From Escherichia coli (lineage in GTDB: Bacteria; Pseudomonadota; Gammaproteobacteria; Enterobacterales; Enterobacteriaceae), in NCBI RefSeq assembly GCF_030013205.1, contig NZ_CP122648.1: a stretch of DNA of 64,000 nt; one strand, 5' to 3'. The position numbers and the translations under genes are program-made. The notes below the pieces were generated by a model. That model worked only from the letters and a program-made list of their open reading frames with translations, searched no databases and had not been told where the DNA came from. This document shows positions 15,893 through 60,493 of the stretch, piece by piece; positions within the stretch are counted from its first letter, which is position 1, and each line of letters opens with the position of its first letter.

Positions 15893-16546
15893 TTATATCC
15901 CTTCTTCACTCTCTTTTTTCGCTTCTGCCTTCTCGATTTCACGATACCAGCGCGGATGGTGTTTCTTCGCCCAGCGACGGCTCACCTTCCCTTCGATCAT
16001 CCCTTTAATCGATCCTTTCACCCAGAAAGCCATATACATATGGATCAGGATGGCGTGGATCAGGATGATACCCGCAGCCGCATGGATCAGCAGGCTATAA
16101 CGGACAACCTGTATCGGGAAGTACTGCGCAAAGTACGGACGCCAGATAATCACCCCGGTCACCAGCAGCACGAAAATCATGCTCATGATTGACCAGAACA
16201 TCATCTTTTGCCCGGCGTTGTACTTACCGACATCCGCCACTTTGTGCTCATTGCCTTTTAATACTTCGACAATGTTCAACAGCCACGGAATATCTTTCTT
16301 ATCCGGGATGTTGTGATGCACAAAACGCACAAACATAAACATCAGCGCGACGAAAATCGCAATGCCGAAGAACGGGTGCAAAATGCGTCCCATCTGCGGC
16401 GTACCGAAGGTTTGCGTCAGCCATTGCAGCGTCGGGAAGAAGAACGAAATCCCGGACAGCGCCACCAGGAAGAAGCAAATCACCACGGTCCAGTGACAGG
16501 CGCGATCAATAAATTTGGTGCGCACAATCATTTTCGACTTACTCAT
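15893..16546 (-). CDS. fdnI: Formate dehydrogenase-N cytochrome b556 gamma subunit FdnI (217 aa)
   Basis: ORF translation from [12 protein letters not shown]...; 4-TM heme b protein. Confidence 0.9.
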
Positions 16547-17423
16547 GATGATCCTCCTCGTCATCGTCCACTTCCTTATTCGGGCCAATACCGATGTAGT
16601 GGAAAATCAACCCGGCAAAAGTGGCAATAAAGCCAGCCGCTGCCAGCGGTTTCAACGCGCCTTTCCACAGGCTTACCGAGGTATCGATCTTCGGATCTTT
16701 CGGCAGACCGTGATACAGCTCCGGCTGATCGGCGTGATGCAGCACGTACATAACGTGCGTACCACCGACCCCTTCCGGGTTGTAGACGTCAGCATGTTCG
16801 TAACCACGCGCTTTCAGTTTCGCCACGCGCTGTTCCGCCAGCTCCAGCATCTCCTTCTTGGTGCCGAAGTGGATAGCCCCGGTCGGACAGGTTTTCACAC
16901 AAGCCGGTTCCTGGCCGACGCTGACGCGATCGACGCAGAGCGTGCATTTATATACCCGGTTATCCTCTTTGTTGAGGCGCGGAATATTAAACGGACACCC
17001 GGCAATGCAGTAACCACAGCCGATGCAGTTTTCCGACTGGAAATCGACAATCCCGTTAGCGTACTGAATGATTGCACCAGCAGACGGGCACGCCTTCAGG
17101 CAGCCCGGATCTTCACAGTGCATACAGCCGTCTTTACGGATCAGCCACTCCAGCTTGCCGTTCTGTTCGGTTTCGCTAAAGCGCATCACCGTCCAGGACT
17201 TGGCGCTCAGATCTGCGGGGTTATCGTAAACCCCGACGCAGTGCCCCACTTCATCACGGATGTCGTTCCACTCCGAACACGCCACCTGACAGGCTTTACA
17301 GCCGATACAGGTGGAAACGTCGATAAGTTTTGCGACTTCTGCTTTGTAATCACGCACCTGAGAAGGCGGCGTGATGGAGTTAGTTGCGGACCTTTTGATA
17401 ATGTCCTGCGTTTCCATAGCCAT
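16539..17423 (-). CDS. fdnH: Formate dehydrogenase-N iron-sulfur beta subunit FdnH (294 aa)
   Basis: Four CxxCxxCxxxCP ferredoxin motifs, C-terminal TM helix. Confidence 0.93.
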
Positions 17424-17435
17424 CTGTTCGCCCCC

Positions 17436-20400
17436 TTACGCCTTCTCGATGTTGACTAAGAACGCTTTATATTCCGGCGTTTGCGAGTTTGCATCACCGA
17501 CATTCGGCGTCAGAGTGTTAGCGATATAACCTTTACGCGCGACACCCTCAAAGCCCCAGTGGATTGGAATACCCACCGTTTCAACCTGCTGACCGTTTAC
17601 ATTCAGCGGTTTCAGACGGCGCGTTACCACCGCCACCGCGCGGATAAAGCCACGCTTGCTTGAGACAGTGACACGATCGCCATTATTAATGCCTTTCGCC
17701 GCCGCCAGCGTTTCGCTGATTTCCACAAACTGTTCCGGCTGAGCAATTGCGTTGAGCAACGCGTGCTTGGTCCAGGTGTGGAAGTGCTCGGTCAGACGAT
17801 AGGTCGTACCCACATACGGGAACTGCTCTTTTTTACCCATCCGCAGCGCGTCTTGTTCATACAGACGAACGACCGGGTTAGACACCACGTTCGGATGCAG
17901 CGGGTTAGTGCCCAGCGGCGTTTCAATTGGCTCGTAGTGTTCCGGGAACGGACCTTCCGCCATTTTGTTGATGGCAAACAGGCGTCCCATCCCTTCCGGC
18001 TGCATGATAAACGGCCCGGTTGGCGTACCCGGCGCGGCATTGCCGAAGTCCGGAATATCGTTACCCGTCCACTTGCTGCCGTTCCACTGGATCAGCATCC
18101 GTTTCGGATCCCACGGTTTACCGCTGATATCCGCCGAAGCACGGTTGTAGAGTACGCGACGGTTGAGCGGCCACGCCCAGGCCCATCCCAGCGTATTCCC
18201 CAGACCGGACGGGTCGGAGTTATCGCGGTTAGCCATCTGGTTGCCCTGCTCTGTCCAGCTACCGGTGTAGATCCAGCAAGACGATGCGGTTGTACCGTCA
18301 TCACGCAGATGCGCAAAGCTACTCAGCAACTGACCTTTCTTCGCAATCAGCACGCCATTAGCATCATAGAGATCTTCCAGCGCATAGCCGTTATTCTCTT
18401 TCGCCACTTCGTCAGACTGCGGTTCGTGCGGCTGCTTGTAGTTCCAGCTCATCTTCATCAGCGGTTCTACGCCTTTACCACCTTCGGCCTGGTACAGCTC
18501 GCGCAGATGATGGTAGATACCCGCCAGAATTTCGCCGTCGTTACGCGCTTCGCCCGGCGCATCCTGACCTTTCCAGTGCCACTGCAACCAGCGACCGGAG
18601 TTAGCGATAGAACCATCTTCTTCAGCAAAGCAGGTCGAAGGCAGACGGAATACCTCAGTCTGAATAGACGCCGGATCGACATCGTTCGACTCGCCGTGGT
18701 TCTGCCAGAAGGTAGAAGTTTCAGTCACCAGCGGATCGATAACCACCATGTACTTCAGCTTGCTCAGGCAGCTCACCACTTTGTTTTTGTCCGGGAAGGA
18801 CGCAACCGGGTTAAAGCCCTGGCAGAAATAACCGGTGACTTTGCCTTCATCCATCATGTTGAAATACTTGATGACGTCGTAGGTCTGGTCCCACTTAGGC
18901 AGCCAGTCGTAGCCCCAGTTGTTCTCTTTCTGCGCGGCATCGCCGTAGAAAGATTTCATCAGGCTAACGAAGAACTTCGGATAGTTGCTCCAGTAGTTCA
19001 CCTGATCAGCCAGCGTCGCTTTCGGCGTGTTCGCTTCCAGATACGACTGCAAATCAACCTGTTTTTCTGACGGCAGCGTCAGATAACCTGGCAGGCTGGT
19101 AGAGAGCAGGCCTAAGTCAGTCAGGCCCTGAATGTTGGAGTGACCACGCAATGCGTTCACGCCGCCACCAGCCATACCCATGTTACCGAGCAGCAATTGG
19201 ATCATCGCCATGGTGCGGATGTTCTGCGCACCCACGGTGTGCTGCGTCCAGCCCAGCGCGTACAGGAAGGTGGTGGTGCGATCCGGCGCGCTGGTGGAGG
19301 CCAGCACTTCACACACTTTCAGGAAGTCGGCTTTTGGCGTACCGCAGATGTTTTCTACTACATCCGGCGTGTAGCGGGAAACGTGCTCTTTCAGCAGGTT
19401 CCACACACAGCGCGGATGAGTCAGTGTTTCATCGCGTTTCGCATAGCCGTTTTCATCGAACTGATAGTTCCAGGACGATTTATCGTACTGGCGTTTTTCA
19501 GCGTCGTAGCCGCTGAACAGACCGTCTTCGAAAGCAAAATCATCACGCACCAGCAGGCTGGCATTGGTGTAATGCTTAACGTATTCGGCATTGATTTTGT
19601 TGTTTTCGATCAGGTAGCGCAAAACGCCAGACAGGAACGTAATGTCCGTACCGGAACGAATAGGTGCGTAAATATCCGCTACAGAAGCGGTACGCGTAAA
19701 ACGGGGATCGACAACGATCAAGGTTGCATCGTTGTTGTTTTTCGCTTCCATCGCCCAGCGGAAACCGACGGGATGCGCTTCAGCAGCGTTACCGCCCATC
19801 ACCATCACGACGTTAGCGTTTTTGATATCCACCCAGTGGTTGGTCATCGCACCGCGACCAAATGTTGGAGCAAGACTTGCTACCGTTGGTCCGTGTCAGA
19901 CGCGCGCCTGGTTGTCTACCGCCAGCATCCCGAGGGAGCGGGCAAATTTCTGGGTCAGCATCCCGGTTTCGTTGCTGGCACCGGAGGCACACAGCATACC
20001 GGTAGAAAGCCAACGGTTTACCGTTACGCCCTGCTCGTTCTTTTCAATAAAGTTAGCGTCACGGTCAGCTTTCATCAGCTTCGCAATACGGGAGAATGCT
20101 TCTTCCCAGCTAATGCGCTGCCATTTGTCAGAACCTGGCGCACGATATTCCGGGTAGCGCAGACGGTTTTCGCTGTTGACGTAATCCAGCAAACCGGCCC
20201 CTTTCGGGCACAGCGCACCACGGCTTACCGGATGATCCGGGTCACCTTCAATGTGATAAATCGCTTCTCTGGCGTTTTTCGCGCCATCACCCAGGCTATA
20301 CATCAATAGCCCGCAACCTACGGAACAGTATGTGCAGGTGTTACGGATCTCTTTAGCGCGTAATAATTTGTAGTTTCGCGCCTGAGCCAGTGCTTGCTTT

Positions 20401-20483
20401 GGGGCAAAGCCCAATGCCGCTACTGTTGTTCCAGCCATACCGCCCGCGCAGATTTTAAAAAATTGTCTGCGACTGACGTCCAT
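17436..20483 (-). CDS. fdnG: Formate dehydrogenase-N catalytic alpha subunit FdnG (1015 aa) with in-frame TGA selenocysteine codon at 19896-19898 and Tat signal RRQFFK
   Basis: Two adjacent same-frame ORFs (19896-20483 and 17436-19847) separated only by one TGA; total length exactly 1016 codons; molybdopterin oxidoreductase motifs. Confidence 0.92.
19850..19895 (-). ncRNA. Bacterial SECIS stem-loop in fdnG mRNA immediately 3' of the UGA selenocysteine codon (cis element, not an independent gene)
   Basis: Position directly downstream of in-frame TGA; established requirement for SelB-dependent recoding; structure not computed. Confidence 0.5.
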
Positions 20484-20602
20484 TGCTTTCCTCTTTTTTC
20501 AGGGGTATTACTGCGCGAGGAAACTAACAGTAAAATTCTGAATCTTTTTGCGCGAAATCAAAAAGAACACGTGTTTGCCACAAAATAATCCGCCTGCGCA
20601 AA

Positions 20603-59465: not shown

Positions 59466-59749
59466 TACCGTTGTCTCTCTTCCAGGTTTACTCCTGATAG
59501 AAAGTCATCGGCACTTGACGGTAATTTCTTACGACCAAAAACCTCTTTGCGTCACATTTTTACAACAATTATGGCAGAGAAGAATAATGCCATTGGAATG
59601 AAGAGAGTAACGAATGATTAAACTGGCTAAACCGAATGACGAAAAATTCTGGAAAACAGCACGCAATTTCGTGAAGTGATTATTTTCGTCCCTAAGGAAA
59701 CCTCATAGGATGCCTGCGGGTGCCTGAGACTTTCTGTTTTCAGGCTAAC

Positions 59750-59805
59750 CGGGAATCAGAAAGACGAAGGCCCCGACCGATATTTCTATCAACCGAGGCC
59801 AACGA

Positions 59806-59815
<10 letters not shown>
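59750..59815 (-). ncRNA. sokB: Probable SokB antisense RNA region of the hokB/mokB/sokB type I TA locus (coordinates approximate)
   Basis: Inferred from the hok/sok architecture (antisense overlapping the mok start); not directly delimited. Confidence 0.3.
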
Positions 59816-60013
<198 letters not shown>

Positions 60014-60428: not shown

Positions 60429-60493
60429 CTTCCGATGTAGACCCGTATTCTTCGCCTGTACCACGGGTCGGTTTTAGTACAGGCGTTTTCTTT
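60429..60493 (+). ncRNA. rydC: Hfq-dependent small RNA RydC (about 65 nt) ending in an intrinsic terminator
   Basis: Sequence cttccgatgtagacccgtattcttcgcctgtaccacgggtcggttttagtacaggcgttttcttt recognised from memory as RydC; terminator hairpin cctgtac/gtacagg plus T-run; convergent with cybB. Confidence 0.6.

Follow-up and report, generated by a model that had tools for sequence, protein, structure and literature searches.

The in-frame UGA codon of Escherichia coli fdnG and the conserved SECIS hairpin that follows it

In the stretch of Escherichia coli chromosomal DNA analyzed here (64,000 nucleotides, hereafter the window), the gene for the alpha subunit of formate dehydrogenase-N carries a TGA triplet far from its 3' end. 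The question raised by this locus is whether that triplet ends the protein or is recoded as selenocysteine under the direction of a hairpin in the mRNA. A mechanical list of open reading frames places two frames on the minus strand, one of 195 amino acids (19896..20483) and one of 803 amino acids when counted from the first downstream ATG (17436..19847). The triplet read from 19898 to 19896 is TGA, in frame with the ATG at 20483, and is contained within TCTGACACGG, the minus-strand letters 19900-19891. Translation of the entire interval yields 1016 codons with a terminal TAA, and the sole internal stop is codon 196; the gene therefore consists of 1015 codons, one of which is the UGA (Sec), plus the TAA stop. 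Beyond the TGA, the frame is open from position 19895 for 819 codons. The product accordingly amounts to 195 + 1 + 819 = 1015 residues, a length shared by the product of K-12 fdnG (3048 nt) and by chain A of PDB entry 1kqf, and the part located 3' of the TGA can be aligned with residues 197-1015, up to the end of that chain. An initial annotation of this DNA had claimed that fdnG is interrupted solely by one in-frame TGA and that its combined length is that of FdnG; the translation agrees with both statements. Near the N-terminus lies the twin-arginine motif SRRQFFK, which we take to be a Tat export signal. Residue Sec196, for which the alignment register is what we verified, is presumably the Mo ligand in 1kqf. 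The features of the locus are collected in Table 1.

Table 1. Features of the fdnG locus, in positions of the window.
Feature	Position	Strand	Basis
fdnG, formate dehydrogenase-N alpha (catalytic) subunit	17436..20483	-	translation; RefSeq identity; TIGR01553; 1kqf_A
Twin-arginine motif SRRQFFK, FdnG residues 4-10	20454..20474	-	seen in translation
UGA codon 196, recoded as selenocysteine (almost certain)	19896..19898	-	only internal stop; homologue alignment
SECIS_3 (RF01989) full match: 3 nt before UGA, UGA, hairpin, 10-nt tail	19843..19901	-	Rfam scan
Entire SECIS hairpin (lower stem, internal loop, apical stem-loop)	19853..19895	-	Rfam consensus structure
Apical mini-hairpin GGUAGCAAGUCUUGCUCC, putative SelB-binding part	19867..19884	-	fold; homologue pairing; invariant bases
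fdnH, iron-sulfur beta subunit	16539..17423	-	TIGR01582, 480 bits vs 334.7; RefSeq annotation
fdnI, cytochrome b gamma subunit	15893..16546	-	NF007558, 485.8 bits vs 339; RefSeq coordinates

The gene was assigned to fdnG, and not to fdoG, because of its RefSeq identity, its match to TIGR01553, the gamma-subunit models, its neighbors and its distances to the K-12 genes. Specifically, all 3048 nt are 100% identical to fdnG as annotated by RefSeq in several E. coli isolates from swine (ETEC), and among 5426 complete E. coli genomes, 5425 carry a copy of fdnG with at least 80% coverage. With Cys put in place of the internal stop, FdnG scored 1622.7 bits against the equivalog TIGR01553 (cut-off 814.2) over residues 2-1014. 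The fdnI product lies above the cut-off of NF007558, which describes the Fdh-N gamma subunit, and below that of NF007924 (269.8 vs 341), which describes another formate dehydrogenase gamma subunit, cytochrome b556. The gene order is yddG-fdnGHI-yddM-adhP, with maeA on the yddM/adhP side, and the same neighbors occur in K-12. Finally, the DNA identity of the window gene is 98.4% to K-12 fdnG vs 75% to K-12 fdoG. An identity as fdoG was considered and ruled out by the gamma-subunit models, the synteny and this difference in DNA identity.

A scan against Rfam returned a match to the SECIS_3 family at the TGA. This match, 59 nt in length, spans model positions 1-59 of 59 and scores 84.3 bits (gathering score 63). 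Its E value, 1.3e-20 locally, becomes 1.4e-18 when the entire 64-kb window is scanned, and the latter value indicates that the match did not arise by chance. The Rfam seed probably contains the very SECIS sequence of the window, and the score is therefore close to recognition by identity. Eukaryotic and archaeal SECIS families (e.g., SECIS_1) gave no match to the fdnG element in the Rfam scan. The hairpin starts at the nucleotide right after the UGA and also codes for residues 197-212 (HGPTVASLAPTFGRGA). Within it, the apical mini-hairpin folds as ((.(((((...))))))) with an energy of -4.5 kcal/mol. When the U of UGA is numbered 1, this part contains a bulged U17 (19882) and the loop nucleotides G23 (19876) and U24 (19875). 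These three nucleotides were defined on the fdhF SECIS as determinants both of binding by SelB and of read-through at the UGA, and an apical stem-loop of 17 nt at nt 15-31, located 11 nt from the UGA, provides further determinants of both (review, PMC8659212). The interval 19850-19898, proposed initially for the recoding site, encloses the complete predicted hairpin together with its UGA, the SECIS_3 match being slightly wider. The accompanying claim of a SECIS hairpin just downstream of the UGA was borne out by the ViennaRNA fold and by a SECIS_3 score above gathering.

The energy of the fold was less informative. In ViennaRNA, the 49-mer at the initially proposed coordinates gives -14.6 kcal/mol and a shape that is essentially that of the Rfam consensus structure; its z is -1.45, and 19 of 200 shuffled sequences fold equally well. 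The 43-nt hairpin alone has an MFE of -12.7 kcal/mol (z = -2.11), and z is -2.06 for the 18-nt apical hairpin. For the validated fdhF SECIS, z is -1.23 and 25 of 200 shuffles are as good. Fold energy was therefore rejected as a validator of SECIS elements, since z is no better for the validated fdhF element and does not discriminate; because the fold of that element is equally unremarkable, energy by itself proves nothing. The initial annotation had made the case depend on a stable hairpin with a conserved apical loop. The hairpin does form and its apical loop is conserved, but its energy lies within the shuffled range, and the case for a SECIS is carried by the conserved loop and by covariation, not by stability.

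To collect homologues, we used a DNA pattern for the downstream protein motif GAMTNHW in which third positions were free and from which the UGA and hairpin were excluded. Among 118 usable homologues, the codon aligned to codon 196 is TGA in 115, TGT in two and TGC in one, the last three encoding Cys. U17 is present in 115/115 of the Sec sites, U24 in 114/115 and G23 in 84. The remaining 31 of the 115 have C23 and are of a deltaproteobacterial/Chloroflexi type, with a differently shaped element. None of the Cys homologues (n = 3, too few for statistics) has the combination of U17, G23 and U24. Within 41 distinct sequences of gamma/beta-proteobacterial type, by comparison, all three determinants are invariant.

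These 41 sequences were aligned and base pairs were counted under the Rfam structure. Pairing is seen in 92.5% of the cells of this structure and falls to 26-50% once the 3' partners are displaced by 1-3 columns. In the same set, 99.7% of the apical helix is paired, and RNAalifold recovers this helix independently. Compensatory changes between GC and AU occur at apical columns 21/33 in 8 sequences, and between AU and CG at apical columns 24/30 in 8 sequences. Both partners of each covarying pair are synonymous third-codon positions (Val GTA/GTG and Ala GCT/GCC in the first pair, Ala GCA/GCC and Leu CTT/CTG in the second), which indicates that the helix has been kept while the protein is unchanged.

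Synonymous sites were then compared across 19 enterobacterial-type loci, which included Escherichia albertii, Citrobacter, Enterobacter, Providencia and Photorhabdus, and both paralogues. For codons 196-213, the fraction of these sequences that use the same synonymous codon as the window is 0.98, compared with 0.53 for the flanking codons. Most of the frozen codons at 198-207 are non-preferred (GGA, CCA, ACG, GTA, GCA, AGT, CTT, GCT, CCA, ACA), whereas codons 211-216 are preferred codons; codon 195, the GTC preceding the UGA, is likewise frozen in enterobacteria. The comparison of fdnG with fdoG gives a similar picture. Overall, the two genes are 75% identical in DNA and 77% in amino acids, and their longest identical run is 71 nt (gene nt 583-653), which extends from 3 nt before the UGA across the SECIS. 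Among informative synonymous codons (identical degenerate residues), 19/19 are identical between fdnG and fdoG within this run, vs 58% gene-wide. Together, these observations show that selection acts on the RNA at the fdnG SECIS, beyond the protein alone.

It might be argued that no RNA structure is under selection here and that the nucleotides following the TGA are conserved solely through constraint on the protein, biased codon usage or gene conversion involving fdnG and fdoG. The encoded peptide, HGPTVASLAPTFGRGAMTNHW, is indeed an almost invariant active-site segment, the 71-nt identity of the two genes looks like a conversion tract, and conservation at the preferred codons 211-216 may reflect codon bias. 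However, protein constraint leaves synonymous sites free, yet 98% of them are fixed, vs 53% in the flanks, from Escherichia to Yersinia, Providencia and Photorhabdus. Bias does not fit the mostly non-preferred codons that are fixed at 198-207, conversion between paralogues offers no explanation for conservation between genera, and in other lineages the synonymous changes come in helix-keeping pairs. We consider this explanation very improbable. Another possibility is that the TGA is a real stop, so that fdnG is a pseudogene or comprises two genes, one of 195 and the other of about 803 residues, with a hairpin present by coincidence. Such a reading would fit the output of mechanical ORF calling, which yields two ORFs, and the deposition of both fragments as separate proteins in public collections, but it appears extremely improbable given that the same codon is TGA in homologues of many phyla and Cys in the three exceptions, that a gene of at least 80% coverage is missing from a single complete E. 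coli genome out of 5426, that 819 open codons follow, that the 1kqf structure is a single 1015-residue chain across the site, and that a SECIS element lies exactly at the required place. A full-length, selenium-containing FdnG of 113 kDa has, in addition, already been reported for E. coli.

A different objection accepts that UGA196 is decoded but attributes this to near-cognate read-through (by Trp or Cys) or to the context of neighboring codons, with no contribution from the hairpin. The frozen GTC before the UGA hints that local context matters in enterobacteria. Against this, a low level of read-through would exert no selection for SECIS conservation, the U17/G23/U24 combination is missing from the three Cys homologues, and the hairpin presents all three SelB determinants (PMC8659212) at canonical spacing; the probability left to hairpin-independent decoding appears to be close to nil.

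The site is thus almost certainly the selenocysteine recoding site of E. coli fdnG, formed by the UGA codon together with its SECIS hairpin. The mechanism by which SelB and SECIS elements act is established for the E. coli formate dehydrogenases. Applied to fdnG, a ribosome reaching UGA196 would encounter a hairpin presented by the mRNA just downstream, the apical part of which (nt 15-32, in the numbering above) would display the bulged U17 and the loop nucleotides G23 and U24. SelB carrying Sec-tRNA(Sec) and GTP would bind this apical part, and the fixed spacing would put the tRNA at the A site, such that the UGA is read as selenocysteine and not as a stop. Translation would then proceed through the hairpin to give the full 1015-residue catalytic subunit. 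SelB binding and the actual insertion of selenocysteine at UGA196 are expected here from the literature, in which both the binding and a selB/selC-dependent insertion are known for E. coli Fdh-N (PMC3636253); the window allele has the same element as K-12. The genes selA, selB, selC and selD are located elsewhere in E. coli, outside the window, and a tRNA scan of the 64-kb window found none. According to the same publication, no proteins of E. coli other than Fdh-N, Fdh-O and Fdh-H use UGA as a codon for Sec (PMC3636253).

The lower part of the hairpin is less well defined than the apical part. In the Rfam register, 14 of the 16 pairs of the element are standard in the E. coli sequence, and the two non-standard ones, A-G and A-C, are in the lower helix. 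ViennaRNA instead favors a lower stem whose register is offset by one position, in which a G bulges out and the A of the UGA is also paired. Because of these two non-standard Rfam pairs and the shifted MFE register, the exact pairing of the lower stem is uncertain. Across homologues, 87% of the lower helix is paired and one of its pairs covaries, and covariation is unable to choose between the registers because the enterobacterial sequences are nearly invariant. When a context of 141 nt is folded, the MFE structure adds a CGUC/GAUG helix around the UGA; this helix pairs codon 195 with GCG-AUG (columns 1-3 with 54-56), and its lone variable pair is paired in 27 of the 41 sequences. The lower SECIS region contributes modestly to read-through (PMC8659212), and given this modest share the uncertainty of the lower stem leaves the main conclusion intact.

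In Enterobacterales, the frozen block extends from codon 195 to approximately codon 216, is wider than the mini-hairpin that would bind SelB and is identical in fdnG and fdoG. Codon bias at the preferred codons 211-216, together with a lower or extended stem, likely explains this width. It is also conceivable, although unlikely, that the block has an extra function at the RNA level beyond SelB docking, or that recurrent gene conversion matches the elements of both paralogues to one SelB. If an extra function were to exist, it could be, for example, an extended lower helix around the UGA that tunes ribosome pausing or competition with release factor.

As the initial annotation remarked, the recoding site is established biology: UGA196 and its SECIS are textbook material, the element is in Rfam, and the gene is correct in RefSeq. 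The selenocysteine signal of fdnG is already known, and scientifically nothing about it is new. The same annotation cautioned that automated callers split the gene in two. This applies to simple callers, and an exact-sequence look-up found the 195-aa fragment on at least 1000 contigs and GenBank accessions for the 803-aa fragment. However, RefSeq records contain a single uninterrupted fdnG CDS of 3048 nt, and for curated pipelines the caution is outdated. One member of the 195-aa protein cluster is misnamed "sulfate ABC transporter substrate-binding protein". Plain ORF callers, then, still split fdnG, and the resulting fragments persist in public protein collections. These data also illustrate that, for the validation of bacterial SECIS elements, fold energy alone is insufficient, whereas the freezing of synonymous sites and covariation suffice.

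The closest known system is fdnG of K-12 (b1474), from which the window allele differs at 50 of 3048 nt and 3 of 1015 residues. No differences fall within gene nt 313-755, and the UGA and SECIS are therefore identical in the two alleles. The operon and its neighbors are also equal; nothing relevant differs, and the window gene represents a strain-level allele. The SECIS of fdoG (formate dehydrogenase-O), which together with that of fdhF had been named initially as a suitable comparison, also belongs to SECIS_3 (RF01989). With both reference sequences taken from E. coli K-12, the fdoG element is identical to that of fdnG at 59/59 nt, has the same score of 84.3 bits on SECIS_3 and likewise follows a UGA at codon 196. 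It differs in that fdoG lies in another operon, fdoGHI, beside fdhD, and encodes a paralogous protein of 1016 aa.

The SECIS of fdhF (formate dehydrogenase-H) resembles that of fdnG in that no nucleotides separate its hairpin from the UGA, 20 of the 24 nt counted from the UGA onward (UGA included) agree, and the bulged U17 and the loop nucleotides G23 and U24 (determinants: PMC8659212) are shared at equal distances from the UGA. It nevertheless belongs to a sister family, SECIS_2 (RF01988), on which it scores 87.1 bits, whereas the fdnG element reaches 28.8 there against a gathering score of 70. The apical helix has 5 bp and a GUC loop in fdnG (or 4 bp and AGUCU), but 3 bp and a GGUC loop in fdhF, and the lower stem and 3' side of the fdhF element are unlike those of fdnG. 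The Sec codon of fdhF is codon 140, in a cytoplasmic enzyme of 715 aa. Periplasmic formate dehydrogenases of the deltaproteobacterial/Chloroflexi type (...ACUGUAGCGGCUCUGGCAGAGUCG...) share with fdnG the codon, the protein family, U17 and U24. Their SECIS differs in having C at position 23 (31 of the 115 Sec sites) and in forming merely 6-11 of the 16 SECIS_3 pairs. Eukaryotic and archaeal SECIS elements serve the same purpose of reading UGA as Sec, but they lie in untranslated regions and contain a kink-turn motif, and it is SBP2, not the elongation factor directly, that recognizes them.

We compared codons across enterobacteria around the UGA at codon 196 of fdnG, which is read as selenocysteine (Sec). 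Synonymous sites are frozen as far as codon 216, beyond the SECIS hairpin that directly follows the UGA, and the codon preceding the UGA likewise falls within the frozen block. The identical run between fdnG and its paralogue fdoG is 71 nt long and exceeds the 59 nt of the Rfam model for this element, SECIS_3. One 195-aa N-terminal fragment of FdnG, EFN8991448.1, is entered in its source record as 'sulfate ABC transporter substrate-binding protein', a name that seems to be a mistaken annotation carried over from the split fdnG.

fdnGHI is under anaerobic, nitrate-induced control. About 70 nt 5' of the fdnG start codon, the window sequence contains TTGATTTCGCGCAA, which resembles a pair of FNR half-sites and, as a candidate read from sequence, would fit this mode of control.

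An intact OmpC-family porin gene is flanked by yddG and a gene for an LRR protein; at the corresponding place K-12 presumably has only a porin pseudogene (yddL). Further along, narZ is truncated, with a break at approximately 30298, and is followed by an IS91-like element comprising a small ORF and then a transposase (approximately 30748-31935), beyond which lies an N-terminally truncated gene for a TonB-dependent receptor. Strain CFSAN018748 is colinear with the window up to 30298 and no further. The junction query was covered to at least 80% in only 6 genomes, and in full only in ETEC4079 (NZ_CP122643.1). This arrangement looks like an IS91-associated deletion that removed the remainder of the narZ operon together with neighbouring genes.

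Features located in the window, including two further RNA matches
Feature	Position	Strand	Remark
Codons 195-217 of fdnG, stretch with the frozen synonymous sites	19833-19901	-	
TTGATTTCGCGCAA, candidate FNR half-site pair upstream of fdnG	20530-20560	-	likeness to TTGAT-N4-ATCAA
OmpC-family porin gene, intact, 366 aa	21855-22955	+	RefSeq name 'porin OmpC'
Truncated narZ, IS91-like element and truncated TonB-dependent receptor gene	27497-33399	+	
Antitoxin RNA sok (hok/sok-type toxin-antitoxin locus)	59718-59869	+	Rfam gathering-level match, 113.8 bits
sRNA RydC	60429-60492	+	Rfam gathering-level match, 92.5 bits

Among the fetched homologues, one from a Dehalococcoidia MAG (L023) has the Cys codon TGT at the Sec position. 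Despite this codon, a hairpin, GGCGC-UCU-GGGCGC, lies 3' of the TGT and retains U17 and U24, two of the SelB determinants. This hairpin is similar to SECIS elements of the deltaproteobacterial/Chloroflexi type and may have been left over from a recent replacement of Sec by Cys.
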